This document shows positions 1,006 to 24,207 of a stretch of 41,147 nucleotides of DNA, piece after piece. Below the pieces are notes generated by a model that made no database searches, was not told the origin of the DNA, and saw nothing but the letters and a program-made list of their open reading frames with translations. The position numbers and the translations under genes were made by a program. Source of the DNA: an uncultured Clostridia bacterium (lineage in GTDB: Bacteria > Bacillota > Clostridia > Christensenellales > DTU072); the NCBI GenBank assembly GCA_944371785.1, contig CALVXZ010000004.1, forward strand, positions 1 through 41,147, given 5' to 3'. Each line of letters begins with the position of its first letter. Position 1 is the stretch's first letter.

Positions 1006-1620
1006 ATGATCAGACCTAATTATCTTAGCGAAATTAAAAGTCGAATATCCGCTTACGAAAACGGCGCTGTTTTTGTCGCCGCAGATTTTACAGATATCAC
1101 CGACAAAAAGACAGCAAGCGTCGGATTGACGCGGCTTGAAGCCGATGGGCTTCTCAAACGAGTGATCAGAGGTGTCTATTATAAACCGGAATATAGTAAA
1201 TTTTTGAAAGAGTATATTGCCCCTATTCCGGACAATGTAGCCCATGCAATCGCCCGCAATTTTGGATGGACGATTGTGCCATGTGGCGATGCGGCGCTCA
1301 ACTTGCTCGTCTTATCAACGCAAGTTCCTGCCGTTTGGCTTTACGTGAGCGACGGAACATATAAAGAATATTCTTACGATAATACCATCATCCGTTTCAA
1401 AAGGACGACAAATAAAGATATATCGAAATTTTCTTACAAGACCGCACTGACCATCCAAGCGTTAAAAGCGTTGGGAAAAGATAAGGTAGATAAAACCGTG
1501 ATTGAAAAGCTGCGGAAACTATTGTCTTCCGAGGAAAAAGCGACGATGTTGAACGAGGCGAAGATCGCCACTTCATGGATCTACGAATACATCAAACAAA
1601 TTTGCAGAGGTGAAAAATGA
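1006..1620 (+). CDS. DUF6088-family protein, AbiEi-like type IV antitoxin
   Basis: N-terminal wHTH-like LTRL..G.L.RV.RGVYYKP; G..ALN.L.LSTQVPA motif; SD GAGGTG; ATGA overlap with the toxin gene. Confidence 0.85.
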   Translation: MIRPNYLSEIKSRISAYENGAVFVAADFTDITDKKTASVGLTRLEADGLLKRVIRGVYYKPEYSKFLKEYIAPIPDNVAHAIARNFGWTIVPCGDAALNLLVLSTQVPAVWLYVSDGTYKEYSYDNTIIRFKRTTNKDISKFSYKTALTIQALKALGKDKVDKTVIEKLRKLLSSEEKATMLNEAKIATSWIYEYIKQICRGEK

Positions 1621-2621
1621 GAAATATTGCAAAAATCAATGAGCGCGACAGAAAAGCCCTCTTTCAAAATACGGCGGCTAAAATGGGCATGACGGACGCC
1701 GTTGTCGAAAAGGATTTTTGGGTATGCTATATGCTCGACTATCTCTTTCACCGCTGCGCTTGGAAAGACAAGATCGCATTTAAGGGTGGGACGAGTTTAT
1801 CAAAGGCTTATGGCCTTATAGAACGGTTTTCGGAAGATATAGATTTAATCCTCGATTGGCGCGTTCTCGGATACGGTGTTAATGAACCGTGGGAACAACG
1901 CAGCAACACTAAACAGGATGCGTTCAACAAAGAAGCGAATGCCCGTGCTGAAGTGTTTTTGCGCGATATGTTTCTTCCAGCGATCGTTTCCGATCTGACT
2001 GCCGAGCTCAGCGAGAATCTCCGCTGCTTTATGGACGGTGATGACCCGCAAACTGTAAAGATCATATATCCGAACAGCTTTTCCGATACATCGATCCTTC
2101 AGGAGATACGCCTTGAAATAGGCGCACTCGCTGCATGGACTCCCGTCAAATACGCGACGATCACGCCTTATGCCGCCGAACAATATACAAGGCTTTTTGA
2201 GCAGCCATCAACAAAAGTTCTGACCGTTTTGCCGGAACGCACTTTTTGGGAAAAGGTCACAATTTTACATAGAGAGGCGTTTCGCCCCGAAGAACGCCCC
2301 TTCCCGTTAAGATATTCGCGGCATTATTACGATCTATATAAAATGGCTCGTACCCCTGTGAAAGACAACGCTTTGCAAGATAACGATTTGTTGGAACGCG
2401 TCGTACGGTTCAAAGATAAATTTTACCGTTGTCCGTGGGCAAGATATGACCTTGCAAAACGCGGAACAATGAAATTATTGCCACCCGAATATAATGTCGC
2501 GAAGCTCCGTTCTGACTATGAGCATATGCAGAATATGCTATTTGGGGAGAAACCTGCATTCAACGAAATATTAAACGAAATGGTACAGCTCGAAACTGAA
2601 ATTAACAAGGCGCATGAATGA
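1617..2621 (+). CDS. AbiEii/AbiGii-family nucleotidyltransferase toxin
   Basis: VEKDFWV, FKGGTSLSKAY, RFSEDID, ERTFWEK and SRHYYD motifs. Confidence 0.92.
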   Translation: MRNIAKINERDRKALFQNTAAKMGMTDAVVEKDFWVCYMLDYLFHRCAWKDKIAFKGGTSLSKAYGLIERFSEDIDLILDWRVLGYGVNEPWEQRSNTKQDAFNKEANARAEVFLRDMFLPAIVSDLTAELSENLRCFMDGDDPQTVKIIYPNSFSDTSILQEIRLEIGALAAWTPVKYATITPYAAEQYTRLFEQPSTKVLTVLPERTFWEKVTILHREAFRPEERPFPLRYSRHYYDLYKMARTPVKDNALQDNDLLERVVRFKDKFYRCPWARYDLAKRGTMKLLPPEYNVAKLRSDYEHMQNMLFGEKPAFNEILNEMVQLETEINKAHE

Positions 2622-2784
2622 CCAATTTAGAGATAAAAACATTCCTCGCTAAAATGTATTGATTCTAAAATTAATATCCAAGTTTATTCAGACAAGCAAA
2701 AATAACAGAAAAGTACGTATTTCCAAAGATAATTTAAAACGAAGTTTTTGAATAAATAACGCTATCTTTGAATAGTATTCTTTG

Positions 2785-3729
2785 TTATACATGTCTAATT
2801 AAGAAAGATTGGGCTTCCACGAACCAACTATCCGCTTCCATGACCTTTACCGCCGGATCTGGTATGATTAGAGGTGAGTAATCTTCTTGACTAATTCTGT
2901 TTAACTCAACCAAATACAAATAATATTTGTCTCCCTTCAGTCTAGCAATCTCATATTCTTTTTTCGACCAATAAAAGCCAGCGTCTGATACAGCTTTGAC
3001 CTCAATAAATCGATCTGGTTCTTGAGATTGGAGTGATGCGAAAGAAACAATGTCATATCCCGCTTCAACATCTATTTCTGAGATTCGTCTAACTTTTTCA
3101 GATAAAGGCATTCCTAGCCTCTTTTTTTCATATTCCAGAACAAAGAGCTCTGCTTTCTCGCCCGCCAATTCATTTAAATGAAGTTGCCTTTTAAGTTTGT
3201 CTAATGATAATTGTTTACGTTGCTCTTTGCAATATCTAGCAATGAGCGAATCATATAAAGAAGAAATATAGAATCGAGTCCCTTGAGCATTTCTAAGAGG
3301 AACGAAAAAGCCCTGACTAATCAACGTATTTCTCACCACAGACAAAGAAAGCGGCAGCATCTCGTTTTTGAAGAAATAACTAAATTGGATTGAGTCGTAA
3401 CAGAACATCTCTGAATCCAATAGATTTTCCCTAAATAATTGATTTACCGTAGATTCGATGAGCGCATCGTTCAATTTGGCTTTGTCATTTAAAAGCTTAG
3501 CGATAGAAGGGGACACGGAGATAATTTTATCGGATAACTCTATCCAGCCAAAAGTCGCGCAATAACTAATTAGGCTTTCTAAAGCGAGATAGCATTTCCC
3601 GGGTGCATAAGAGCAAAGCACTGCCGCATCCGATATTTTTCTTTGACTAGTTCCAATCACATCGCAAAGAAAAAATAAAAGCCCATCCTTACCACCGTAG
3701 TAATTAAGATTTTTTAGTTCGTCTAACAT
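2785..3729 (-). CDS. DUF3883 (NOV_C) PD-(D/E)xK nuclease-domain protein
   Basis: C-terminal GEKAELFVLEYEK...GYDIVS...RFIEVKA...FYWS..EY..A...Y.LYLV pattern; N-terminal ~180 aa unassigned. Confidence 0.85.
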   Translation of the reverse strand: MLDELKNLNYYGGKDGLLFFLCDVIGTSQRKISDAAVLCSYAPGKCYLALESLISYCATFGWIELSDKIISVSPSIAKLLNDKAKLNDALIESTVNQLFRENLLDSEMFCYDSIQFSYFFKNEMLPLSLSVVRNTLISQGFFVPLRNAQGTRFYISSLYDSLIARYCKEQRKQLSLDKLKRQLHLNELAGEKAELFVLEYEKKRLGMPLSEKVRRISEIDVEAGYDIVSFASLQSQEPDRFIEVKAVSDAGFYWSKKEYEIARLKGDKYYLYLVELNRISQEDYSPLIIPDPAVKVMEADSWFVEAQSFLIRHV

Positions 3730-5686
3730 AATCTTTTATCAACGCCTTTATATCCTCATCACCTAAGTCTTCGGAAACATTATTAAACAAGGGAATGGGC
3801 ATGCTTTCCATAATTTCAGTCATACGCCGTTCCTTTTCGGTTAGCCGTGTATCGATTGTTTCATCGACAGTATCTTGGGATAAAATATAGTAATAGTTTG
3901 TAACTGTACCCGACTTTAATCCATAACGGTGAATACGGTCTTTTGATTGTACGAAATGCGCTGCATTAAAGGATCGTTCAACATATATAGCGTTATGGCA
4001 TGCTTTGTGTAATGAAATAGACTCTGCAACCGCAAAGGGGGTAGCAATAATAACCTTAAACGGGCAATCTGTCTGCTGAAATGCCTTTACAATTTTTTCC
4101 CTAGTGAGAATAAATTCGTCTTCGTCATCGCTTTCCCTTTCAACAGGTGTTGCACCATACAACTCCTGACAAGGGATTCCCTGATTTTCAAGATATTCTT
4201 TCAGGTCATGGATAGTGTGGATAAATGTTGCCCAAACAACCGCCTTACCGTCACTAGCCAGAATATCATCAAGCAACCGTTTTACAGCAACATATTTGGC
4301 AGGCACTTCATTTGCTTCATATTCGAGAATAGACTTCAAAACATCAGAATCATCAATTGCCTGATATTCTTCTATTGAGAATTCTTCATCTTCAAAAAAG
4401 TCACGAAGAGGCGCTTTAAGCATGGCTGGATTAGACGCAGCCTGCATTAGACGAATTATCCTAGCTTGTGCCAATGCTGCTTTGAACCGAGAAGATGTAT
4501 CTGTACCACCATCTTTCATAAATTCGTCCATATATTTCTTTTCGATAAAGCTATAGATTCTTTGTTGAAGCGGCCCCATTTGCACATAAATCGGCGGGTG
4601 GCTAGTTGCAGGCGGGATATTTAAATCACTTTTCTGAATTCGCATAAAATACGGAGAAATATTGTCAATCAAGCGACTAACTCTTGTTTGATCTCCTGTC
4701 GCCGTAATATCACGAAGCTGATTAACCTCAAAGCCCATAACGTTTTTATTAGGCCAAATGAATTTGAACATGTTGTAGATATCTTCATATCCATTGGGTG
4801 CAGGAGTCCCAGTAAGAACAATACGAGATTTACTATACTTTGACATTTCAAGTATAGCTTGTGCGATGACTCCTCCTGATGAATTCTTAGCTTTGTGTGC
4901 TTCATCAAGTACTACCATAACTTTGTTGTTTCTAAGGAAAAACCCAATTTCTTTTTGCAATGAAAGCAGAGAGGCATATGAAATCAAAGTCAATTCCGCA
5001 GGATATTTTGAAATCAAATAATCTTGCTTATCTTTCTTATTGACCCCGCCAACGAGCCGTTTTGAGTTGGCTTTACGACCAAAACATTCTTCATACTCCA
5101 GCTCCCAAGGACCAAAAGAACTTAGCGGTCCAACAATTAAAAGACACTCGACATGCTTAGGGTCATCTGCAAGAAGGTTGTGCAAATATGCATAAGCCCC
5201 ATAAACAATGCTCGTTTTGCCTGCGCCAGGTACCGAAAAGTTACATGCATTTTGAGAGAAAGCCATGTGATAGGCTGACAGAAGTTGGAGCGGATATAAA
5301 GATCTTGCTACAAGATTTTTAGCCACAGACTGTGTAAATCGTTCAAATTCACCCGCATCACATTCGTTGTTGCGAATATGGAGTGCCTTCTTTGAAAACT
5401 CTGCAAAGCGTTTTTCTTCCTCGTAATATTCTTGAACGACTTTTTCTGAATTTTCACTTTGCACCTCCGAAAATCCATATTTTGCAAGCATAGAGCTGAT
5501 GTTTGACATCACAGAAAATGTATCGTTGTTATCAACAGGAATAATAATACAATCTTCTGATATAATTGGATGTAAGAAGTCCTTTACATATCTCCAGGCA
5601 AAACGGTTTTTTTGTAAGACCGCGATATCCCCAAGTAGGTATATTTCACTTTTTACTGAATCGAAATCTATAGAGATATTTGCCAC
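3704..5686 (-). CDS. SNF2-family helicase/ATPase
   Basis: Walker A PGAGKT, DEAH, LTGTP, ESISL, QSKDRIHRYG. Probable GTG start at 5686 after GGAG (ORF track extends to 5725). Confidence 0.9.
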   Translation of the reverse strand: MANISIDFDSVKSEIYLLGDIAVLQKNRFAWRYVKDFLHPIISEDCIIIPVDNNDTFSVMSNISSMLAKYGFSEVQSENSEKVVQEYYEEEKRFAEFSKKALHIRNNECDAGEFERFTQSVAKNLVARSLYPLQLLSAYHMAFSQNACNFSVPGAGKTSIVYGAYAYLHNLLADDPKHVECLLIVGPLSSFGPWELEYEECFGRKANSKRLVGGVNKKDKQDYLISKYPAELTLISYASLLSLQKEIGFFLRNNKVMVVLDEAHKAKNSSGGVIAQAILEMSKYSKSRIVLTGTPAPNGYEDIYNMFKFIWPNKNVMGFEVNQLRDITATGDQTRVSRLIDNISPYFMRIQKSDLNIPPATSHPPIYVQMGPLQQRIYSFIEKKYMDEFMKDGGTDTSSRFKAALAQARIIRLMQAASNPAMLKAPLRDFFEDEEFSIEEYQAIDDSDVLKSILEYEANEVPAKYVAVKRLLDDILASDGKAVVWATFIHTIHDLKEYLENQGIPCQELYGATPVERESDDEDEFILTREKIVKAFQQTDCPFKVIIATPFAVAESISLHKACHNAIYVERSFNAAHFVQSKDRIHRYGLKSGTVTNYYYILSQDTVDETIDTRLTEKERRMTEIMESMPIPLFNNVSEDLGDEDIKALIKDYVRRTKKS

Positions 5687-5691
5687 TACAC

Positions 5692-6987
5692 TCAACTCCG
5701 TTCCAATATTTTTTTCATTTCCCAAGTGATTTTACTGATTTCTTTAATCATTTCCCTAATGTGAGGATCCTCAGTAAAACTGCTTTGTTCGCAATTTACC
5801 GACCTAAGGGCACTGAGGGCTCTCTCGATAAGAGCTGCAGGTTTTGTTGCATCACGCTTATCTTCAAGTTTCCGTGTAAAACGATTAAGATTCCCTTTTA
5901 GTTGCCCTTTTGCTTGTTCAATCCATGTATTATCACGCTGTCTGAGCAACAAACTAAGATCCTCACCAGGACAACGCTCTCGCAATTCTTGAACTGTCTC
6001 TTCATCAGTAGGAGTATTTTTTTGATGCTGTTCTAGGAAATCCTCCCACAAGTCTTTATAAAAAAAGATACTTCCTTCTTTTCCTGTCTTTGCAATATCT
6101 CGAAACTCTTTCCCTTCATACCTCGCCCTAATGTAATCGAAGCAAACAAGTTTTAACGCCGAAATATCCACATCGGTGTATGCCCAATCCGCATTTCGAA
6201 CATTTGCACCACGTTTAGTATATGAATCCAGATAACCTGCCAAGTCAACAAAGGGACCTTCTGTTTTCTCAAGCCTTGTATATATTCCATCGTAGTCGTA
6301 CTCTTGCAAATAATCTTCCATTAATGCCAAAATGCGCAACCAGTCTTTAATCTGGCTCGGCTTCTCACTCATAAATCCCGCAATATCTTCTTCCGAAAAG
6401 CCCAACCGTTTTAATTCCTTACATTTTAGATACTTCTCAATAGGATTGTAATCCAGCTTGTCATCCTCACCCATCTGATATATTGTCTCGAGTTGCTGGA
6501 TGTCTCTTTCTTCCGCATCGTCAGGGAGAATAATTGCAAAAAAGTATTGACAGTGCTCTACTTGATTATATGAATATCCAAGATTTTCCCGCTCATGAAA
6601 TAGGCGGTTTAATAACATAGCTCGCCGATTACCATCAACAATAATTCCGTCAGATGTCACAATTCCATATCTCTGTTGACCGTTTTTCAGCAAGCTGTCC
6701 ATAGTAATTTTATTACGATCAATCTTGGATTCGTACAAGAATTTTTCAATTATCTTTCGATCTGAATCCTCTTCTGCATTAAGTTCGCCATTTTGTTTTT
6801 CGTATGACAAAACATCTGAGCCAATTCTCCCATTATATTTGTTATAAATGAGATAAACCAGTGGTATTTTCCATACGATTGCATCTCTTGTTTCGCCCTT
6901 ATAACGCAGGGGGATGCCAGTCATTTTTTGATTTAACTGATTTTGTTGTAATTCTTGTAATTTGATTTTTCTTGTCGTAGTATCCAT
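5692..6987 (-). CDS. ParB/Sulfiredoxin-fold domain protein
   Basis: GQQRYGIVT.DG.IVDGNRR motif, followed by KLDYNPIEKY and an HTH-like GFSEEDIAGFM segment; SD GGAGG; TAATG coupling to the MTase gene. Confidence 0.75.
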   Translation of the reverse strand: MDTTTRKIKLQELQQNQLNQKMTGIPLRYKGETRDAIVWKIPLVYLIYNKYNGRIGSDVLSYEKQNGELNAEEDSDRKIIEKFLYESKIDRNKITMDSLLKNGQQRYGIVTSDGIIVDGNRRAMLLNRLFHERENLGYSYNQVEHCQYFFAIILPDDAEERDIQQLETIYQMGEDDKLDYNPIEKYLKCKELKRLGFSEEDIAGFMSEKPSQIKDWLRILALMEDYLQEYDYDGIYTRLEKTEGPFVDLAGYLDSYTKRGANVRNADWAYTDVDISALKLVCFDYIRARYEGKEFRDIAKTGKEGSIFFYKDLWEDFLEQHQKNTPTDEETVQELRERCPGEDLSLLLRQRDNTWIEQAKGQLKGNLNRFTRKLEDKRDATKPAALIERALSALRSVNCEQSSFTEDPHIREMIKEISKITWEMKKILERS

Positions 6988-8603
6988 TACTGCAGCCCTC
7001 CCATACGATTAATCAACTTTGATAGAACATAATAGCCAATAACAGTTGCAATAGGCAACCGCTTTGGTTCTCCTGTTATAGAAATGTATTGTTTCTGCTC
7101 CTCAGGTGTAAGTAATGTATCTATTAAATTCCTAACATCGTCCAGAAGTTCATATGGCCCGATGAACTGCTGTTCTGCTTGTTCTTGTGATGTCATGCAA
7201 TAAACAATTTGAAACCCGTTCATCCCTGGCATTCTGTTTTGAGTCGCTCTCAAGAAAGATTCAATCGTGTTGCGGTATTGTTGGGGAATATGATTCATTT
7301 CAATTTTTGGAGTGTACACCTTAGCCTTATTCCTCCCTTGACTATAGTGTACTTCCACATCCCACCTGAATTTTTTGTTTTCAAAGTCAGAATGATAATT
7401 TGTGAGTTCCACACGATATGCATTAATTATTAGATATGGAATATGATATTTAAATTTAGCAACATCCCTACGCCGCTGCTCTTTCTTAATCTCGAATGTC
7501 GTTCCATCAAGGTTCACAAAATCAATTGTTTTGTCATGTACTATCATCGGATAATGTTCTGGTATCGGCTCATTCTCTGTATCTGCAATGGCTTTAGCTA
7601 TCGCATATGACATTTTAGGGGGAACCGCATTTCCAACAAGTGTGTGTTTAGTAGCCTTCGTACTTCCGTAAAACCAATAGTCTATCGGAAAACTCATCAT
7701 ACAAGCCGCCTCCCTAACTGTCGGTAAACGATACATGTTTTCTCCATATTTAAGAATCATGGCCTCGCGAGAACTTGTTGACATTGTCGCCATCACAGTC
7801 CTTGCCGGCTTTTCTGTGTTTTCTGGAAATGACATTTTCCCCATATAACCTTTATCTTGTTTGAGACGCTTTGCAGTTTTCCATTCAAAATCAGCCAATT
7901 CATAAATATACCCATGATCCGTCATCTGCTGTCGTTTAAGTGTTAATTCTGGATAATTAACATCGGTTATAATATCATTCTCTGCATTAAGCGGATCCCC
8001 CAAAGAATCAAGAACCATCTGCAATGTCGCCACATCATTATCACTCTTAGTTGCAATGGGTTTTGGAAACTCTCCGCATAAATAGCGTTCTCTATTTGTA
8101 GGTGCTCCAAAATATTTAGCGTTGTACTTCCCTGATGCACCATCATGCGGTCTTAAAATGAAATCTCCTTTTAATCCTAATTCTGCAGCTTTGTATTCTT
8201 CTTTTATATACTCTTTCACTGCTGGGACATTTTCTAAAACCCAGTACTTCAGAACTGAATTCTTCTTGAATTTTTTCCGTGCTACTATCCTCAAATATGC
8301 TTCAATGAGTTGGATACCAATGGATTTATCTGCACTGCCAGATTTATTCGAATGCGAAAATGACTGACACGGCGGTGATCCTATTATCACCTCAGAGTCT
8401 GGAACTAATGTCTCAAATTCTTTGTCTGGTAATTGAGAAATACGAATAACATCATCTAGAACAACATTAACTCCAGGCTTATTTCCTTTATATGTATTTA
8501 CGGCCGGAATCCATTTGTCAACAGCGAAAACGATTTCAAAACCTGCTTGACGAAAACCTTCCGAAAAACCTCCAGCACCGCAAAAAAAGTCTGCCACCCT
8601 CAT
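6987..8603 (-). CDS. dcm: DNA (cytosine-5)-methyltransferase with ~200 aa C-terminal extension
   Basis: Motif I DFFCGAGG, IV GSPPCQSFS, VI ENV, VIII RER, IX TVREAA, X GNAVPP. Probable ATG start at 8603 after AGAAGGTG. Confidence 0.93.
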   Translation of the reverse strand: MRVADFFCGAGGFSEGFRQAGFEIVFAVDKWIPAVNTYKGNKPGVNVVLDDVIRISQLPDKEFETLVPDSEVIIGSPPCQSFSHSNKSGSADKSIGIQLIEAYLRIVARKKFKKNSVLKYWVLENVPAVKEYIKEEYKAAELGLKGDFILRPHDGASGKYNAKYFGAPTNRERYLCGEFPKPIATKSDNDVATLQMVLDSLGDPLNAENDIITDVNYPELTLKRQQMTDHGYIYELADFEWKTAKRLKQDKGYMGKMSFPENTEKPARTVMATMSTSSREAMILKYGENMYRLPTVREAACMMSFPIDYWFYGSTKATKHTLVGNAVPPKMSYAIAKAIADTENEPIPEHYPMIVHDKTIDFVNLDGTTFEIKKEQRRRDVAKFKYHIPYLIINAYRVELTNYHSDFENKKFRWDVEVHYSQGRNKAKVYTPKIEMNHIPQQYRNTIESFLRATQNRMPGMNGFQIVYCMTSQEQAEQQFIGPYELLDDVRNLIDTLLTPEEQKQYISITGEPKRLPIATVIGYYVLSKLINRMGGLQ

Positions 8604-8636
8604 AAATCGATACACCTTCTTTATGGAATATTTCTG

Positions 8637-8812
8637 CTACGTCGCTATGCCGGATTTCAACTAAGCATTTACTTCGTTGACCTTAAATTAAGGCGTCCGA
8701 TTTTTGCGACGGGCATACTTTTATCTTCTATGCAAGCGAGTACGGTATCACGGCTGACTCCAAGATATTCGCAAAATCATTTCATTGAGTACCCACGCTC
8801 AATGTTAAAGCC
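8637..8812 (-). pseudogene. Pseudogene of excisionase-like HTH (HTH_17/MerR-like) DNA-binding protein
   Basis: Manual translation IERGYSMK*FCEYLGVSRDTVLACIEDKSMPVAKIGRL /frameshift/ FKVNEVNA*LKSG; stops at 8777-8779 and 8661-8663. Confidence 0.8.
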
Positions 8813-9157
8813 AGTTGCTCATCCTCGCTTTTCGATTATTATACTTAAACAAATATAGTATAACACAATTTTCTATCCCAATCAAGGATAAATGCGGATT
8901 TATAAAGGAAATACAGGAAAATTTCATTAAAAACTCTAACTAAAAAATATAGTTGAAATGTGTTTATAAGAACATCAAAGGGGAATAAAATATCATTACA
9001 GCCACATATTCTATCAGACGCTACACACACGCGATTAACCGTATCTTCAACCGAAACATCCGGCCGCATCTCTCCCAACCGAAAATTTAAAAATACACAA
9101 TTTCTCTGCCCGTTTGTTTGATTAGAGCATACTAAGTGTCCATAAAATTATGTGACA

Positions 9158-9232
9158 GTGTATATGTTCGACAGATTCGCCCGCAATCGCCGCGACAGTA
9201 TTATGTATAAAGAAATGCTGAAACAAGATTAC
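9158..9232 (+). pseudogene. Serine recombinase (resolvase domain) internal fragment
   Basis: VYMFDRFARNRRDSIMYKEMLK matches the VYxxDRFxRNxxDSxxYKxxLK motif of large serine recombinases. Confidence 0.75.
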
Positions 9233-9379
9233 GGCAGACAGCTTGTCCGCGACAAGACGGCTTTCGCCACCGATTCCGGAATGGGCGGAGTAATGATATG
9301 GCATTTCGGCACCGATTCGTTCGATCCCGAACTGTCGCTGATAAACGTAATCGACGAAGTCGTCGGTTCCGGCAGCTGA
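9233..9379 (+). pseudogene. C-terminal remnant of glycoside hydrolase family 18 (chitinase-like) gene
   Basis: GRQLVRDKTAFA...GMGGVMIW...D....SLI matches the GH18 terminal K..(Y/F)....GLGG.MIW...D motif. Confidence 0.7.
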
Positions 9380-9430
9380 CCGCTTACGTTTACGGCTCAA
9401 ATACCGCCGAGGCGACGCGGCGGCTTGTAT

Positions 9431-9460
9431 TTGACAACGGCGGCTTCGGAATGATAGAAT
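9431..9460 (+). promoter_or_regulatory. Sigma-A promoter
   Basis: TTGACA N18 TAGAAT with extended TG. Confidence 0.65.
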
Positions 9461-9486
9461 GATTGAAAAGGAGATATTTTTCCGTC

Positions 9487-9969
9487 ATGAACGAACAAGA
9501 AAGAAAACATCGAATCAAACGAACCGTTCTGCGCGTCCTGGGCGCAGCGTTGGCTTTGGCGGGATTAGGCTGCTCTATCGCCGGTTTCGTGGACCTCGCG
9601 AAGGCGTTCGGCGAACGCAGAATGCCTATGTTCTGGCTGTTTTTTATCGGCTTCCCGTTGATAGGAGTCGGAATTTTTCTGCTAAGCGCCGGTTTCCACA
9701 GGGCTATTAACAGATATATAAAGGACGAGAACGCTCCCGTATTCAACGAAATGGGACACCAGATAGCTCCGGGACTGTCGGCTATATCCGAAGCTTTGAA
9801 AACAGGCGGCGAAAAGACGGTCTGCCCCAAGTGCGGAGCCGATAACGATAAGGACGCCAAATTCTGTAAATCCTGCGGCGCTGCCCTCAGCCGCGTCTGC
9901 CCCAAGTGCGGAACGCCGAATTCCGCCGACGCCAAATTCTGCGATAACTGCGGCACGCCTTTGGCGTGA
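9487..9969 (+). CDS. Membrane protein with C-terminal double zinc ribbon
   Basis: Two TM helices and tandem CPKCG..N..DAKFC..CG repeats. Start moved to ATG 9487 because it lies downstream of the promoter and AAGGAG. Confidence 0.85.
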   Translation: MNEQERKHRIKRTVLRVLGAALALAGLGCSIAGFVDLAKAFGERRMPMFWLFFIGFPLIGVGIFLLSAGFHRAINRYIKDENAPVFNEMGHQIAPGLSAISEALKTGGEKTVCPKCGADNDKDAKFCKSCGAALSRVCPKCGTPNSADAKFCDNCGTPLA

Positions 9970-9987
9970 CGAATCAGCCTTTATCCG

Positions 9988-10023
9988 GAAAGCTCTTCCC
10001 GAACGGGCGGAGTTTTTCTTTTT
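9988..10023 (+). terminator. Probable intrinsic terminator
   Basis: Imperfect stem-loop followed by a T-rich run. Confidence 0.45.
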
Positions 10024-10060
10024 CGGAAAGGTTTTCGGGATCTGACCCGGGAGGATAAAT

Positions 10061-11407
10061 ATGCCTGAAATATACGATCTTGCGATAATCGGCGGAGGAC
10101 CTGCCGGGTACAAAGCGGCGGAACTTGCGAAAAACCGTATGAAAACGGTGATTTTCGAGGAGAAAAAAGCGGGCGGAGTCTGCCTTAACGAAGGCTGCGT
10201 TCCCACAAAGACGCTGTTGCACGTCGTAAAGGACATAGTCGCGGCGAAGGCTTTGAAAAACTACGGTTTTACCCTGACGGGCGCACCCGACTTGAATAAG
10301 ATCGCCAGGCAGAAGGACAGGGTCGTCAGGATACTGCGCGCCGGCGTCGCCGAGAGCATAAAAGGCGCGGATTATTTTAACGAAAGGGCGGAAATCGCCG
10401 GAGTTTCGGACGGAAAATTCGTCGTCCGCTCCCCCGAAAGAGAGATCCTGGCGGATAAACTGCTGATCGCGACGGGATCGTCTGCGGCTCTGCCGCCCGT
10501 TCCCGGGCTGAAAGAGGCTTTTGAAAAAGGCGTCGCGGTAACCAGCACCGGGGCTTTGGAAATAAATTCCGTACCCGAAAAATTCGTCATAATCGGCGGC
10601 GGCGTGATAGGCGTTGAAATGGCGTCGATATATTCGGCTTTGGGTTCGGAGGTGACGCTGATAGAGGCGGAATCCGAATTGTTGCCGCAATCGGATAAAG
10701 ATCTGGGCGGGTACGTCAGGAAGGCTTTCGAACGCGGCGGAATAAAAGTCCGCACCTCGACGAAAGCCGTTAAGATTACTCTGACGGAAGAAAACAACCT
10801 GCTGACTCTGGATGCGGGCGGAGCCGCGGAAGACATAACTTTCGACAGGCTTCTGGCAGCGGTGGGCAGAAGACCGAACGTCGCCGGAATAGGCTTGGAA
10901 AACATTTCGGTCAGAATCGATCGTGGAATAGTTACCGACGAATATATGCGTACTTCGGTTCCCAAAGTGTGGGCTGCGGGAGACGTAAACGGCAAAATGA
11001 TGTTGGCGCACAAAGCATACCGCGAAGCCGCGGCAGCCGTTTCGGATATGTTGGGCAACCCTTATAAAGTGCGCTACGACACCGTGCCGGAGGCGGTATA
11101 TTCCATTCCGGAAGTAGCTTCCGCGGGCGCGAAAGAAGGACAGATCGAAGGCGCCGTCGTAAGGAAGATCCCGGCTTCGTATTCGGCGCGTTACGTCGCC
11201 GAAAGCGATTCCAGGGACGGATTTGTAAAGACCGTCGTTTCGGAAGGCAGACTTGTCGGGGTACAGCTTGCTGTGCCGTATGCCGCGGAGATCGTTTCCG
11301 CTGCCTCCGTGATGATAGAAAAAGGTATGACGGAAAGCGAGATAGTCAGGCTCTGTTTCCCTCATCCCAGCGTTTCCGAATTGTTGGGGCACATACCTCG
11401 GGAATAA
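10061..11407 (+). CDS. lpdA: Dihydrolipoyl dehydrogenase
   Basis: GGGPAG FAD motif, GGVCLNEGCVPTK redox disulfide, GGGVIGVE NAD motif, C-terminal HPSVSE. Confidence 0.88.
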   Translation: MPEIYDLAIIGGGPAGYKAAELAKNRMKTVIFEEKKAGGVCLNEGCVPTKTLLHVVKDIVAAKALKNYGFTLTGAPDLNKIARQKDRVVRILRAGVAESIKGADYFNERAEIAGVSDGKFVVRSPEREILADKLLIATGSSAALPPVPGLKEAFEKGVAVTSTGALEINSVPEKFVIIGGGVIGVEMASIYSALGSEVTLIEAESELLPQSDKDLGGYVRKAFERGGIKVRTSTKAVKITLTEENNLLTLDAGGAAEDITFDRLLAAVGRRPNVAGIGLENISVRIDRGIVTDEYMRTSVPKVWAAGDVNGKMMLAHKAYREAAAAVSDMLGNPYKVRYDTVPEAVYSIPEVASAGAKEGQIEGAVVRKIPASYSARYVAESDSRDGFVKTVVSEGRLVGVQLAVPYAAEIVSAASVMIEKGMTESEIVRLCFPHPSVSELLGHIPRE

Positions 11408-19129: not shown

Positions 19130-20194
19130 ATGGATAAATACCTCGTCCTGGAAAACGGAAACGTCTATAAAGGAAAGGCGTTCGGAGCAGAAGGCGACTC
19201 CGTGGGCGAATTGGTGTTCACCACCGGAATGGTGGGATACACCGAAACGCTGACAGATCCGTCCTACTACGGGCAGATAATAATGCACACTTTCCCGGAG
19301 ATCGGGAATTACGGCATTATGTACGAAGATATGGAATCGGACGGAGTGGCTGCCGCGGGATACGTCGTTCAGAATTACTGTCTGCACCCGTCTAATTTCA
19401 GAAAAGATACCGATATCGATTCGTTTTTAAAGGAAAAAGGCGTAGTCGGCTTGTACGGCGTGGATACCAGGGCTTTGACCGCGGCAATCCGCTCCGCCGG
19501 GGTAATGAACGCCGCAATAGTTTCCGATCCATCGAAAGTCGATTTGGAAAAGCTGCGCGGCTATAAAATCAAAAACGCCGTGGCTGCGGTTTCGTCCGCG
19601 GCGGAGGAAGTTTACGAACCCGAAAACGCCGAATTTACCGTGGCTTTATACGATTACGGCGCAAAACGCAACATAATACGCACTCTTTTAAAGCACAACT
19701 GCCGCGTTATCAGCGTGCCGTCGGATACTCCGGTATCCAGGATAAAGGACATCGCTCCGGACGGCATAATGCTGTCCAACGGACCCGGCAACCCGGCTGA
19801 ATGCAAAAAAGAAACGGCTCTGATAGCCGAGCTTATGGGATATAAGCCGATCTTCGGCATCTGCCTGGGGCATCAGCTTGCGGCGCTTGCCGCCGGAGCA
19901 AAGACGGTAAAATTGAAGTACGGTCACCGCGGAGCCAATCAGCCGGTGAAAGAACTTGCCACGGGCAGGACGTTCATCACCAGCCAAAATCACGGGTATG
20001 CCGTGGACGCCGATTCGGTAAAGACGGGTAAAGTAAGTTATATCAACGCCAACGACTTTACTTTGGAAGGGATAGATTACGACGATATCGGTATGATCAC
20101 GGTGCAATTTCATCCGGAAGCCTGCGCCGGTCCCAGGGATATGCGCAGACTTTTCGACGATTTCGACAATTTGATGAAAGGAGGTAAACGCTGA
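19130..20194 (+). CDS. carA: Carbamoyl-phosphate synthase small subunit
   Basis: TDPSY, SNGPGNP, GICLGHQ, SQNHG, QFHPE; ATG 19130 after AAAGGAG. Confidence 0.96.
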   Translation: MDKYLVLENGNVYKGKAFGAEGDSVGELVFTTGMVGYTETLTDPSYYGQIIMHTFPEIGNYGIMYEDMESDGVAAAGYVVQNYCLHPSNFRKDTDIDSFLKEKGVVGLYGVDTRALTAAIRSAGVMNAAIVSDPSKVDLEKLRGYKIKNAVAAVSSAAEEVYEPENAEFTVALYDYGAKRNIIRTLLKHNCRVISVPSDTPVSRIKDIAPDGIMLSNGPGNPAECKKETALIAELMGYKPIFGICLGHQLAALAAGAKTVKLKYGHRGANQPVKELATGRTFITSQNHGYAVDADSVKTGKVSYINANDFTLEGIDYDDIGMITVQFHPEACAGPRDMRRLFDDFDNLMKGGKR

Positions 20195-23100
20195 TGCCTC
20201 GCGATCCTAAAATTAAAAAAGTATTGGTGATCGGTTCCGGTCCGATAGTGATAGGTCAGGCGGCGGAATTCGACTACGCCGGCACGCAGGCGTGCCGCGT
20301 GCTGAAAGCCGAGGACATAAAAGTCGTCTTGGTCAATTCAAACCCCGCCACGATCATGACCGACGCGGCTTTGGCGGACGCCATTTACACCGAGCCGCTG
20401 ACTCTGGAAACGGTAAAGCGTATCATAATCAAAGAAAAACCCGATTCGGTTTTGGGAACTTTGGGCGGACAGACGGGGCTGACGCTTTCGATGCAACTGG
20501 AAAAAGAGGGCTTTTTGAAGGCGCACAAAGTACGTTTGATCGGCACCGACGCCGATTCTATCTGTCTTGCGGAGGACAGGGAACTTTTCAAAGAAACGAT
20601 GGAATCGATAAATATGCCCTGCATACCTTCGGATATCGCTTCCACCGTCGAACACGCCTTGGAGGCCGCGGAAAAGATAGGCTATCCCGTCATAGTGCGC
20701 CCGGCATTCACCCTGGGCGGTAACGGCGGCGGCGTCGCTTATTCGGCGGAAGAATTAAAGACGGTGGCGGCGGGCGGCATAGAAGTTTCGCCGATCTCGC
20801 AGATCCTGGTCGAAAAATACATCTACGGTTGGAAGGAAATAGAATTCGAAGCCATACGCGATTCGATAGGCAACACGATAGCGGTGTGCAGTATGGAAAA
20901 CGTCGATCCCGTCGGCGTGCATACCGGCGATTCCATAGTCGTGGCGCCCGCGCTGACGCTTTCGGACAAAGAATACGAAATGCTGCGTTCGGCATCGATA
21001 GACATAGTTTCGAAGCTGAACATAATCGGCGGATGCAACTGCCAATTCGCGCTGGATCCCGATTCTATGCGTTTTGCGGTGATCGAGGTAAACCCGAGGC
21101 TGTCGCGTTCGTCCGCGCTGGCAAGCAAGGCGACGGGATATCCCATTGCGAAAGTCGCCACCAGATTGGCTTTGGGCTACACCCTGGACGAGATCAAAAA
21201 CGAAGTTACCGGCAAGACGTGCGCTTGTTTCGAGCCCGCGGTAGACTATGTGGTGTGCAAATTCCCGAAGTGGCCGTTCGACAAGTTCGTCTATGCTGAC
21301 AGGACGCTGGGAACGCAGATGAAAGCCACCGGCGAAGTCATGAGCATAGCGCCTTCGTTCGAAGCCGCCATAATGAAAGCCGTCCGCGGCGCGGAAATAG
21401 GCGTGGACACTCTGAATATGCCGTCGATTGCGGATTACGATTCCGAAAAGCTGATGGCGGCTTGCGACGACAGAAGGATTTTCGCGGTATTCAAAGCGCT
21501 GAAGGAAGGCATTTCCCCCGACCGTATTTTCGAGATCACAAAGATCGACAGGTTTTTTATCGAGAAGCTGAAAAGGCTTGCCGATTTCGAAAAGGAGATC
21601 GAAGGCAAACCTATCGACGGCGAACAATATCTTACCGGCAAACGGTTGGGGTATACGGATAAGGCTTTGGAACGCATTTCCGGGAATAAGGTTCCCGAAC
21701 ATCGTAATGCGGTATACAAAATGGTAGATACCTGCGCGGCGGAATTCGACGCTGAAACGCCGTACTTCTATTCTTCGTACACCGACGAGAACGAAGTTTT
21801 AAGGCATATCGACCGTTCCAAAAAATCGGTGCTGGTATTGGGATCCGGACCTATCAGGATAGGTCAGGGCATAGAATTCGATTATTCCAGCGTGCACTGC
21901 GCCTGGGCTATCAAACGCGAAGGCTACGAGGTCAGTATCATAAACAACAACCCCGAAACCGTTTCCACCGATTTCGACGTGGCGGACAGGCTGTATTTCG
22001 AACCGCTGACTCCGGAAGACGTCGATAACGTCATTGCGGTGGAACAACCCGTCGGCGTGGTCGTGGCTTTCGGCGGACAGACGGCGATAAAGCTTACGAA
22101 ACATCTTGACGAAAAAGGCGTAAAGGTGTTGGGGACTTCCGCGGACGGCATAGACAAAGCCGAAGACAGGGAACGCTTCGACAAGCTGTTGGAAGAAGTC
22201 GGATTCAAACGTCCGAAAGGGTATGCCGTTACGAACATGACCGACGCGATACAGGTAGCCGAAAGCCTGGGGTACCCGGTATTGGTCAGACCCTCCTATG
22301 TTATCGGCGGTCAGAATATGACGATAGCATACAACGAAACCGACGTCGAAGAATATATGGGGCTGATACTTGCTAACGGCGCGGATTCTCCGATACTCAT
22401 CGACAAATACCTTATGGGCACCGAATTGGAAGTCGACGTGATCTCCGACGGCGATGACGTTTTGATGCCCGGGATTATGCAGCACATAGAGCGCGCCGGC
22501 ATCCATTCCGGCGATTCGATAGCCGTATATCCTCCGTATAACATCGGCGACGTAATGCGCGAAAAGATAGTCGATTGTTCGACAAGGCTTGCGCTGTTGT
22601 TGGGAACGCGCGGCCTGGTGAACATTCAGTACGTAATTTACGAAAACGAACTTTACGTCATCGAAGTCAACCCCAGGGCTTCGCGCACGATCCCGTATCT
22701 GAGCAAAGTCACCGGGATACCGATGGTGGATATCGCCACGCATATTATGCTGGGCGGTAAGCTGAAGGACCTGGGATACGGCAGCGGACTTGCAAAGACC
22801 GTGCCTTACGTCACCGCGAAAGTGCCCGTGTTCTCCTTTGAAAAACTCAGAAACGTCAACTCGATCCTTGGTCCGGAGATGAAATCGACCGGCGAAGTGC
22901 TTGGAGTGGGAAAGACGTTGGTGGAAGCATTGTTCAAAGGTCTGACGGCGGCAGGCTTTAAGATCGATATCGGCAAGGAAAACCGCGGAGTGTATATGTC
23001 CGTACGCGACGTGGACAAATACGACGCTTTGAAACTTGCCAAAAAGTTCTTGGATCTGGGAATAACCGTCTACGCCGACGGCGCGGCCGCCGAAGTAGTC

Positions 23101-24207
23101 CACGAACTTGGTTCCGATTGCGTGGAAATAAAAGGCGAGGAGATATATTCTCTCCTGGAAGAAGGCAGGATCGATTACATAGTTTCCACCGTTTCCAACG
23201 CCAGAAGCTCCGTGGATAAATATATAAAGCTCAGGACAAGGGCGATACAGCTTGGAGTGGCTTGCATGACTTCGTTGGATACCGCCAACGCTCTTGCAGA
23301 TATTCTGGCTTCGCGCTTTACGGAAAGGAACACCGAATTGGTGGACCTGAACAAGATGAGAAAGGACAGGCTGAAGATCGCTTTCACAAAGATGCAATCT
23401 TTGGGTAACGACGGGGTCTATATCGAAAACTTCAATAATTCCGTAAACTGTCCCGAAAGCCTTGCGATCCATTTTGCCGACAGAAACTTCGGCATAGGCT
23501 CCAACGGGCTTGCGGTCATCGGAAAATCCGACGTCGCGGACGCAAAGATGGATATATTCAACAAGGACGGTTCCGACGGCAAGACTTCGGGCACTTCGTT
23601 GATCTGTACCGGAAAATTCCTGTACGACCGCGGCATAGTAAACAAAACCGATATCACGATCGAAACGCAATCGGGTATCCGTAAATTGGGACTGTACCTT
23701 TCCGACGGCAAAGTTTCCGGCGTGACCTGCGATATGGGAATGCCGGGGCTGAAACCCGCTGATATACCTTGCGCGCTGGAAGGCGATTCGGTGGTGAACA
23801 GGGAAGTCGAGATCCGCGGTAAAAAATATAACGTCACCGTAATTTCGATCGGCAATCCGCATCTTATCATATTCGTGGACAGAGTCGACGACGTGGATAT
23901 AATGAAGTTGGGACCGCTGTTCGAATACGCACCCTTCTTCGGCGACAGAACCAACGTCGAATTCGTGCGCGTAGTCAATTCGGGCACTCTGAAAATGCGC
24001 GTATGGGAAAGGGGCAACGGCGAAACTTTGGCTTCCGGTTCGGGTGCTTGCGCCGCAGTAGTCGCCGCCACTCTGAACGGCTTTATCCCCGAAGATACGG
24101 ATATCACCGTAAAAACGCGCGGAGGCGACGTCACCGTCCACTACAAAGATTCGGTTTCGCTGACGTCTTCGGCGCACCTGGTCTACGAAGGCGTTATCAG
24201 GATTTGA
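20194..24207 (+). CDS. carB: Carbamoyl-phosphate synthase large subunit fused to a C-terminal DapF-fold domain
   Basis: GSGPIVIGQAAEFDY and GSGPIRIGQGIEFDY duplicated ATP-grasp halves, then an MGS-like region; from ~23371 FTKM...GND, DRNFGIG, GNPH, TNVEF, RVWERG.GETLA. Confidence 0.96.
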   Translation: MPRDPKIKKVLVIGSGPIVIGQAAEFDYAGTQACRVLKAEDIKVVLVNSNPATIMTDAALADAIYTEPLTLETVKRIIIKEKPDSVLGTLGGQTGLTLSMQLEKEGFLKAHKVRLIGTDADSICLAEDRELFKETMESINMPCIPSDIASTVEHALEAAEKIGYPVIVRPAFTLGGNGGGVAYSAEELKTVAAGGIEVSPISQILVEKYIYGWKEIEFEAIRDSIGNTIAVCSMENVDPVGVHTGDSIVVAPALTLSDKEYEMLRSASIDIVSKLNIIGGCNCQFALDPDSMRFAVIEVNPRLSRSSALASKATGYPIAKVATRLALGYTLDEIKNEVTGKTCACFEPAVDYVVCKFPKWPFDKFVYADRTLGTQMKATGEVMSIAPSFEAAIMKAVRGAEIGVDTLNMPSIADYDSEKLMAACDDRRIFAVFKALKEGISPDRIFEITKIDRFFIEKLKRLADFEKEIEGKPIDGEQYLTGKRLGYTDKALERISGNKVPEHRNAVYKMVDTCAAEFDAETPYFYSSYTDENEVLRHIDRSKKSVLVLGSGPIRIGQGIEFDYSSVHCAWAIKREGYEVSIINNNPETVSTDFDVADRLYFEPLTPEDVDNVIAVEQPVGVVVAFGGQTAIKLTKHLDEKGVKVLGTSADGIDKAEDRERFDKLLEEVGFKRPKGYAVTNMTDAIQVAESLGYPVLVRPSYVIGGQNMTIAYNETDVEEYMGLILANGADSPILIDKYLMGTELEVDVISDGDDVLMPGIMQHIERAGIHSGDSIAVYPPYNIGDVMREKIVDCSTRLALLLGTRGLVNIQYVIYENELYVIEVNPRASRTIPYLSKVTGIPMVDIATHIMLGGKLKDLGYGSGLAKTVPYVTAKVPVFSFEKLRNVNSILGPEMKSTGEVLGVGKTLVEALFKGLTAAGFKIDIGKENRGVYMSVRDVDKYDALKLAKKFLDLGITVYADGAAAEVVHELGSDCVEIKGEEIYSLLEEGRIDYIVSTVSNARSSVDKYIKLRTRAIQLGVACMTSLDTANALADILASRFTERNTELVDLNKMRKDRLKIAFTKMQSLGNDGVYIENFNNSVNCPESLAIHFADRNFGIGSNGLAVIGKSDVADAKMDIFNKDGSDGKTSGTSLICTGKFLYDRGIVNKTDITIETQSGIRKLGLYLSDGKVSGVTCDMGMPGLKPADIPCALEGDSVVNREVEIRGKKYNVTVISIGNPHLIIFVDRVDDVDIMKLGPLFEYAPFFGDRTNVEFVRVVNSGTLKMRVWERGNGETLASGSGACAAVVAATLNGFIPEDTDITVKTRGGDVTVHYKDSVSLTSSAHLVYEGVIRI

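Follow-up and report, generated by a model that had tools for sequence, protein, structure and literature searches.

The window analysed here, a stretch of 41,147 bp that makes up the whole of contig CALVXZ010000004.1 from an uncultured Clostridia bacterium (assembly GCA_944371785.1, 1.54 Mb, 93% complete), carries at positions 2785-8603 of its minus strand a cassette of four co-oriented genes placed head to tail. From the first gene to the last, these encode a C5 DNA methyltransferase (MTase; 538 residues, 8603-6987), a protein with a predicted ParB/Srx fold (431 residues, 6987-5692; the ParB-like protein below), an SNF2-family ATPase/translocase (660 residues, 5686-3704) and a DUF3883/NOV_C nuclease of the PD-(D/E)xK type (314 residues, 3729-2785). 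The stop codon of the MTase gene and the start of the ParB-like gene share base 6987 within the sequence TAATG (6985-6989), the ParB-like stop TGA (5692-5694) lies 5 nucleotides ahead of the GTG start of the SNF2 gene at 5686, and the SNF2 and DUF3883 genes overlap by 26 nucleotides (3704-3729). All of these coordinates and junctions match those of an initial annotation of this stretch, which had read the four overlapping genes as a candidate undescribed defence system. For the MTase we prefer the ATG at 8603 over the listed GTG at 8615 because the N-terminus MRVADFFCG is common to all 21 homologues aligned, and the GTG start of the SNF2 gene is backed by the N-terminal MANISID, conserved among homologues from loci of the window's own type (class A, defined below). 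In NCBI records the cassette proteins go by the names 'DNA cytosine methyltransferase', 'hypothetical protein' and 'DUF3883 domain-containing protein'.

The first protein was correctly named a C5 MTase in the initial annotation, with matches to PF00145 (9.7e-39, residues 5-343) and TIGR00675 (3.8e-29), and with PPC79 and E124-N-V invariant in an alignment of 22 sequences; the PADLOC models DrmMII and DruM match it over the generic MTase core only. It is the sole PF00145 match in the assembly. What that annotation missed is a conserved C-terminal domain, since the MTase domain proper occupies residues 1-343 and a further 195 residues (~345-538; window 6990-7571) follow it. This domain is modelled as a four-strand sheet with helices, the mean predicted local distance difference test score (pLDDT) of 10-residue blocks running from 78 to 96 over residues 371-530 apart from one block at 65. 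It contains the nearly invariant block AKFKYHIPYLI..AYRVELTNYHSDF....W..E.HYSQGK, and six invariant charged residues (E375, K383, K385, E399, E417 and H419) lie on its predicted strands. Searches of Pfam, PHROGs and PDB sequences gave no match to the domain, and Foldseek with the model of the whole MTase returned C5 methylases only.

The second protein is supported as a member of the ParB/Srx superfamily by its predicted structure. Pfam, NCBIfam, PADLOC 2.0 and PHROGs hold no match to its sequence beyond HTH_ParB at an E-value of 0.11, and a PDB profile search yielded coiled-coil noise only. The AlphaFold2 model, built from a 41-member alignment, reached a pLDDT of 92.8 and a predicted TM score of 0.87, and Foldseek placed it with Spo0J (1vz0, 7.4e-4), KorB (8qa9, 1.2e-3; also 8qa8) and the N-terminal domain of pNOB8 ParB (5k5d, 2.3e-2), the best PDB matches having a probability of 1.00 and TM scores of 0.5-0.56 on the target. 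These results bear out the fold proposed in the initial annotation. The protein is predicted to consist of the ParB/Srx fold, a central helix-turn-helix (HTH) and a C-terminal helical domain, and the superfamily features that can be recognized in it are the ParB N-terminal fold, a GxxR-type motif and the HTH. Residues invariant among 41 diverse members are N49, N52 and R54 (in YNxYNGRI), G119-N-R-R122, E167 and Q171, where GNRR is what we take to be the nucleotide-binding box II of ParB. The family is large, with 2168 homologues at E<=1e-3 among 90%-identity clusters and 1161 representatives at 50% identity; among the 120 matches listed of those 2168, none carries a name, and in the Protein Atlas one neighbouring cluster is labelled 'ParB/RepB/Spo0J family'.

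The third and fourth proteins are recognizable as a motor and a nuclease. The SNF2 protein matches SNF2-rel_dom (2.7e-23) and Helicase_C (4.1e-6), and Walker A (G156-K-T158), the DEAH box (D261-E-x-H264) and motif VI (QSxDRIxRxG) are invariant across 28 sequences; its top PADLOC match, ZorD (5.2e-25), covers the helicase core only, and its N-terminal ~145 residues have no Pfam match (residues 1-162 searched). The DUF3883 protein matches NOV_C over residues 194-275 (6.2e-13) and, with its nuclease domain alone, PD-T4-1 and TmtA in PADLOC (2.4e-13); D226 and E243-V-K245 are invariant in 33 sequences. Its ~185-residue N-terminal domain is the most divergent portion of the cassette, and the Protein Atlas offered only sub-threshold leads for that domain (a BpuJI_N cluster at 0.78), which were not used. 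Neither the ParB-like nor the DUF3883 protein matches any PHROG. Across the cassette, the catalytic motifs that the initial annotation had described as intact are invariant in alignments of 22-41 homologues.

The arrangement of the four genes is conserved well beyond the window. Scanning one genome per species, with gene order determined by tblastn, gave 31 loci, and 24 of these hold all four genes in the same order and on the same strand. None of the seven others contradicts the four-gene synteny: at L012, L018, L025 and L031 the contig ends inside the cassette, and L026, L028 and L030 form a distant branch (46-55% identity) with a different C5 MTase preceded by a Sau3AI/MutH-like endonuclease, L028 and L030 being also cut by a contig end. 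Hosts of the 31 loci include several families of Clostridia, Negativicutes (Megasphaera), a Phocaeicola metagenome-assembled genome (Bacteroidota) and Actinomycetota. The four-gene finding, including the synteny that the initial annotation had left to be checked, is real and far beyond chance. Levels of identity rise and fall together among the four proteins (Spearman 0.81-0.86; n=22 for the MTase and ParB-like pair, n=44 for the other two pairs), and mean identity to class-A homologues ranges from 52.6% for the DUF3883 protein to 77.5% for the ParB-like protein, which is 60-86% identical across bacterial families. The flanks of the window resemble those of none of the 31 loci, and the cassette itself is therefore the unit. 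The ParB-like family is rare and patchy: of 400 further genomes drawn from across the phylum, 3 contain it. The overall pattern, as read from sequence comparison, is the one expected of a mobile cassette that is passed on in one piece.

The surroundings of these loci also fit the defence-island setting proposed at the outset, as the flanks of the 31 loci carry restriction and defence families (Mrr_cat, AspBHI, MutH, ResIII, Schlafen/AlbA_2, Fic and AAA_21). Active 5-methylcytosine (m5C) methylases usually have at their side Vsr, a repair nuclease for m5C deamination. Downstream sequence is available for 20 class-A loci, and in 7 of them a Vsr gene comes after the DUF3883 gene; in seven loci of a second type (class B) a Vsr gene lies ahead of the gene resembling a restriction endonuclease (REase).

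A wider search revealed that only part of the cassette is its conserved core. To obtain further loci, we searched viral contigs, records of phages and plasmids, and additional genomes with the ParB-like family profile; neighbouring genes were labelled with our own iterated hidden Markov models (HMMs) anchored on Pfam and PADLOC assignments. The core that emerges is the ParB-like and SNF2 pair, and at least five further kinds of methylase-bearing system have this pair attached to them. Class A, to which the window belongs, joins the extended C5 MTase to the pair and a DUF3883 gene at 25 loci (plus L008, L020 and L031 by tblastn). In class B (23 loci) a conserved ~310-residue protein with similarity to BanI/DpnII and to the PADLOC REase_II model stands with the pair and DUF3883; a C5 MTase is seen upstream or convergent downstream in 20 of the 23, the other three ending at contig ends, and the class takes in Streptococcus phage Javan191. 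Class C combines a Sau3AI/MutH-like endonuclease and a C5 MTase with the pair (L026, L030, L035 and L057, plus the Priestia plasmid locus L074), and class D an N6_N4 MTase and a BglII/BamHI-like endonuclease with the pair (L065, which also has NOV_C, and L072). In class E (six loci, including a Lactococcus lactis plasmid) the pair lies directly downstream of Type III Mod and Res genes. Class F has a large protein with sigma70_r4 and RNA polymerase alpha C-terminal domain similarity beside the ParB-like gene (L034, which also has SNF2, and L064 and L066), its gene preceding the ParB-like gene in L034 and L066 and following it in L064; 49 enterococcal plasmids carry this sigma70-like protein (tblastn). 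A fusion of HEPN_Swt1 to a ParB-like protein beside a C5 MTase (L071) stands apart from these classes. At every locus with sufficient contig, bar the three of the sigma70 type, a methylase lies no more than three genes away, and most of the other variants already hold a complete restriction-modification (R-M) pair directly upstream.

Among the loci examined, the C-terminal domain of the window's MTase is confined to class-A MTases. It holds the slot that in classes B, D and E goes to an endonuclease and in class F to the sigma70-like protein, and Pfam and PADLOC scans detected no REase family beside the MTase in the window. The idea that the domain is a fused copy of the partner REases went unsupported, as hhalign similarity was nil both to the ~310-residue BanI/DpnII-like family and to the BglII-like proteins.

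In a quick maximum-likelihood tree built from 61 ParB-like proteins, those with the same type of partner fall together, with a clade value of 99 for class A, 100 for class B and 99 for class E, and the partner label changes 11 times on this tree as compared with 32.5 times in shuffles. Some individual loci depart from the common gene structures. On the Priestia megaterium plasmid pBP01R2b (L074), an 851-residue SNF2 protein (7536-10088) carries an N-terminal PLDc_2 nuclease domain, with dcm and MutH/Sau3AI endonuclease genes flanking its own. Judged from gene structure, the nuclease of the module is swappable, being a separate DUF3883 protein in the window and class B and a PLDc_2 domain fused to SNF2 in L074; such exchange is typical of restriction effectors. 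In the sigma70-like protein (L034 4353-6959; cf. Priestia plasmids, L074 10225-11763), C-terminal residues 636-825 resemble annotated MutH/Sau3AI-family endonucleases by tblastn (3e-8), with no Pfam MutH match, which suggests that this protein reads GATC-type sites. HEPN_Swt1 is fused N-terminally to ParB-like members in L064 (6404-8140, 579 residues) and L071 (943-3057, 705 residues). The SNF2 gene is split into two open reading frames (ORFs; 423 and 118 residues) in L026 (9304-11259), and in L059 (6204-9306) two SNF2 ORFs (221 and 409 residues) are separated by an opposite-strand ORF of 353 residues; both look like decaying or insertion-disrupted copies. In class B (L036-L056), a pair of genes for HTH_3 (125 residues) and Peptidase_M78/ImmA-like (220-236 residues) proteins lies ~200 bp beyond the convergent C5 MTase gene, and many cassettes of this class lie no farther than 1-3 kb from the end of a predicted-prophage contig, as prophage cargo or as neighbours.

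In the window itself the cassette lies on a chromosomal contig, between housekeeping genes, which from 10 kb onward include those for arginine and pyrimidine biosynthesis, and an AbiEi/AbiEii type IV toxin-antitoxin pair that adjoins the cassette and is convergent with it. Both members of that pair, AbiEi (1006-1620, plus strand; AbiEi/DUF6088 in Pfam at 1.4e-34, PADLOC AbiEi at 9e-61) and AbiEii (1617-2621, plus strand; Pfam 4.2e-38, PADLOC 1.2e-106), were rightly called in the initial annotation. AbiE stands beside the cassette in the window alone and is absent from that position in 31 of 31 genome loci, and it is therefore not part of the system. The region is AT-rich, as had been noted, with a GC content of 0.37-0.41 in 1-kb bins from 2001 to 9000 as against 0.49-0.57 in bins from 9001 to 41000, and no att-like repeats bound this low-GC island. 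A candidate promoter upstream of the MTase gene (TTGATT-17-TATACT with TG; 8857-8885, minus strand) is a weak product of a consensus scan that ran at background (25 sites in the region against 21.4 expected), and a terminator scan of the region was likewise at background level. Directly upstream of the MTase gene, at 8669-8776 (minus strand), 35 codons remain of a gene of the HTH_17 (excisionase/MerR-like) type, with an in-frame stop before them and no start codon (Pfam 1.6e-4, profile 8-34 of 51). This remnant may stem from the element that carried the cassette in. Farther out, a 168-residue ORF at the GC-rich edge of the island (9463-9969, plus strand) encodes two zinc-ribbon units that derive from a 75-nucleotide tandem duplication (repeats at 9820-9954, including an exact 18-nucleotide repeat). 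A 1337-residue ORF (20194-24207, plus strand) joins a carbamoyl-phosphate synthase large chain (CPSase_L_D1/D2/D3 and MGS) to a C-terminal diaminopimelate epimerase domain (PF01678, 1.3e-47) and is either an unusual carB-dapF fusion or the result of a missed stop.

We regard the cassette as a probable horizontally acquired defence operon of the R-M type, and assign a probability of roughly 0.6 to a mechanism whereby self DNA is shielded by its methylation and unmarked DNA comes under attack from the ParB-like, SNF2 and nuclease module. What is observed is the gene content, the folds and motifs, the synteny and the repeated attachment of the pair to methylase-bearing systems. In the proposed sequence of events the MTase would mark a host sequence with m5C, as its intact motifs and the Vsr genes beside its homologues suggest. 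On unmarked DNA the ParB-fold protein would then act as a nucleotide-gated clamp or loader and engage the SNF2 ATPase, a role proposed because of its fold, its HTH and its invariant GNRR and E..Q residues. The SNF2 protein would translocate and deliver the DUF3883 PD-(D/E)xK nuclease for cutting. These assignments of sensor, motor and cutter remain close to those of the initial annotation, and they should be held as conditional. In the weakest step of the scheme, the C-terminal domain of the MTase would read the unmethylated site or provide the link to the module. A complex prediction with four chains (the MTase C-terminal domain, the ParB-like protein and the N-terminal domains of the SNF2 and DUF3883 proteins) scored 0.00 and counts neither way.

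Several observations weigh against this interpretation. The cassette and its close homologues are known from genes and models, and the phage resistance, and the toxicity when the methylase is missing, come from the literature on the lactococcal system AbiR. The link to AbiR is in turn one of matching architecture and not of direct sequence comparison, and the ParB-like proteins of the window and of AbiR-layout loci match no PADLOC 2.0 model. A conventional REase is present in most of the other variants, so that the main methylation-sensitive cutter may be something other than the module. One and the same module would also have to face m5C, N6-methyladenine or N4-methylcytosine, and Type III chemistry, which argues against its reading the mark itself. 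The ParB-like tree is quick, with long branches and no bootstrap, and related sequences on it share labels. No Vsr was found in the window's own genome (93% complete), and the role proposed for the MTase C-terminal domain is drawn from its position and conservation. As the pair is attached to many R-M systems that bring their own endonuclease, to view the cassette as an MTase with three restriction subunits is just one option among others.

A bolder generalization, which we entertain only tentatively and with the odds against it, is that the ParB-fold and SNF2 proteins form a universal add-on to R-M systems, a nucleotide-gated clamp and a motor that would convert the local recognition of unmarked DNA by at least six unrelated site-reading partners, to which they were coupled repeatedly, into long-range, processive destruction or replication arrest. 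The six partners would be three type II REase families, Type III Res, the sigma70/MutH-like protein and the C5 MTase's C-terminal domain. Were this so, that domain would represent a novel type of nuclease or of reader for unmethylated sites, and a family with more than 1000 clusters at 50% identity would have AbiR as only one of its branches.

The main alternative, though we think it unlikely, is that the module is blind to methylation and loads on breaks or stalled complexes left by the linked restriction enzyme, turning a single cut into processive destruction. The complete R-M pair directly upstream in most variants would then supply the initial cut, the unrelated partner chemistries (m5C, N6/N4 and Type III) would be tolerable to a generic sensor of ends or complexes, and in the window the first cut would fall to the MTase C-terminal domain as a cryptic fused endonuclease, an idea that its invariant charged residues on predicted strands favour. 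Against this, sequence and profile searches revealed no resemblance of that domain to a nuclease, and the tendency of the ParB-like tree to track partner type suggests specific coupling over generic sensing. The toxicity of AbiR without its methylase, as the review reports it (PMC13064643), would imply direct sensitivity to the missing mark if the endonuclease was absent from that experiment.

More improbable still is an independent system of the abortive infection (Abi) type whose only tie to R-M genes would be a common island or operon and which would sense a phage cue unrelated to methylation. Defence genes do cluster, AbiR has been classed as abortive infection (Makarova 2013; review PMC13064643), and the HEPN_Swt1 fusions in L064 and L071 are typical of Abi-type effectors. 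Such independence is hard to reconcile with the overlap of the MTase stop and the ParB-like start in TAATG, which points to translational coupling, with the near-universal methylase linkage, or with the methylase dependence that the same review gives for AbiR. A mobile-element function in partition, maintenance, anti-restriction or epigenetic protection during transfer, and not in host defence, is very hard to credit, for although class-B cassettes lie at predicted-prophage ends beside HTH_3 and Peptidase_M78 pairs, distant Type III- and sigma70-linked relatives reside on enterococcal, lactobacillus-group, lactococcal and other Bacillota plasmids (60 of 66 mobilizable or conjugative) and polyvalent phage and plasmid proteins are described as joining ParB, SNF2 and MTase domains (PMC5512222), the cassette holds no ParA partner, its nuclease is intact, invariant and conserved, its position in the window is chromosomal, and two of its proteins are without a PHROG.

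An R-M-type defence operon built on a shared ParB-like and SNF2 module thus remains our preferred view, and it has several consequences. The window cassette and the AbiR-layout loci are placed in one large family whose common denominator is the ParB-like and SNF2 pair. If the coupling is functional, it would represent a new mode of action for ParB-fold nucleoside triphosphate (NTP) switches outside chromosome segregation and a general mechanism by which restriction-modification is strengthened or rewired. The four-gene form is compact (5.8 kb), highly conserved and spreading among gut anaerobes, which makes it a tractable cloning model. PADLOC 2.0 is blind to this form, and it has therefore probably been missed in defence censuses that use that database.

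Comparison with established systems places the cassette beside several of them. PADLOC 2.0 contains no model for the four-gene form, and a literature search that did not extend to supplementary tables found no paper naming a system of C5 MTase, ParB-like, SNF2 and DUF3883 proteins. Pfam and PADLOC scans detected no DISARM, Zorya or type I-III subunits within the cassette, in agreement with the initial annotation. DISARM was rejected on a partial DrmA match (9.7e-6, helicase C-domain) and weak DrmD matches, with neither DUF1998 nor PLD among the four genes, and Zorya because the ZorD match spans positions 471-903 of a 1071-position profile, with no ZorA, ZorB or ZorC in the six proteins scanned. 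The cassette resembles Type III R-M in combining a methylase, a superfamily 2 (SF2) ATPase and a PD-(D/E)xK nuclease for what would be NTP-dependent restriction. It was nevertheless rejected as a Type III system, since its methylase is a C5 enzyme (PF00145) and not an N6/N4 Mod, its ATPase is of the SNF2 type, ATPase and nuclease are encoded by separate genes, and a ParB-fold protein is added. BREX-related DUF499 systems, in which an SNF2 helicase fused to a DUF3883-type REase is described as the restriction arm in a 2013 HEPN survey and a 2026 BREX survey (PMC3710099, PMC12839542), come close in that their Type-1 BR form has SNF2 and a DUF3883-type nuclease in a methylase-bearing system. The cassette lacks their DUF499/BrxC-like ATPases, their N6 MTases and their TUDOR-SNF2-REase fusion, and they in turn have no ParB-fold protein. 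ParB-fold NTP-binding proteins are described in modification-dependent defence loci as DndB, DpdB and the N-domain of DUF262/GmrSD (PMC12839542, PMC3632139). The window protein has no sequence relation to these that Pfam, NCBIfam or PADLOC could detect, and with its GNRR motif and HTH it is closer in predicted fold to the partition and repressor type of Spo0J and KorB than to DndB-like proteins.

The closest precedent is AbiR of L. lactis plasmid pKR223 (AbiRa/i, AbiRb/ii and AbiRc/iii), known since 2000. In a 2026 review's account, AbiRi is sigma70-like, AbiRii is ParB-like and superimposed on 5K5D, and AbiRiii joins an endonuclease-like N-domain (7CLG) to an Snf2 ATPase (PMC13064643). The same source places the AbiR genes around the LlaKR2I R-M system, states that they interfere with phage DNA replication, need the M.LlaKR2I methylase and are toxic in its absence, and calls the mechanism 'unclear' (PMC13064643); an earlier survey describes AbiR as frequently linked to R-M systems (Makarova 2013, PMC3632139). 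The cassette and AbiR thus share a ParB-like protein followed by an Snf2-family ATPase, a genetic tie to a DNA methylase and the possession of a nuclease, and 5K5D, the superposition target for AbiRii, is also among the Foldseek matches of the window's ParB-like protein. The published AbiR layout of sigma70-like, ParB-like and SNF2 genes recurs in full at L034 and in part at L064 and L066, and the pair at L034 is homologous to that of the window (ParB-like HMM 2e-36, SNF2 HMM 1e-123), with an identity of only ~27% between the ParB-like proteins of the window and of AbiR-layout loci. R-M pairs of the Sau3AI/MutH type flank the module at L026, L030, L035, L057 and L074, and LlaKR2I is an isoschizomer of Sau3AI. 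The cassette differs from AbiR in that a Pfam scan found no sigma70-like gene in it or its flanks, in that its recognized nuclease is a separate DUF3883 protein and not the N-terminal domain of the Snf2 protein, and in that its MTase lies inside the operon and bears an extra C-terminal domain. Given this AbiR precedent and the homologous pair at L034, the proposal of a wholly undescribed system was too strong; the absence of a named four-gene system holds for PADLOC 2.0 and the literature searched, but the pair itself is a module of many R-M-linked systems. By analogy of architecture, the cassette may be considered a form of an AbiR-like, R-M-coupled ParB-SNF2 module, the breadth of which appears to have been under-appreciated.

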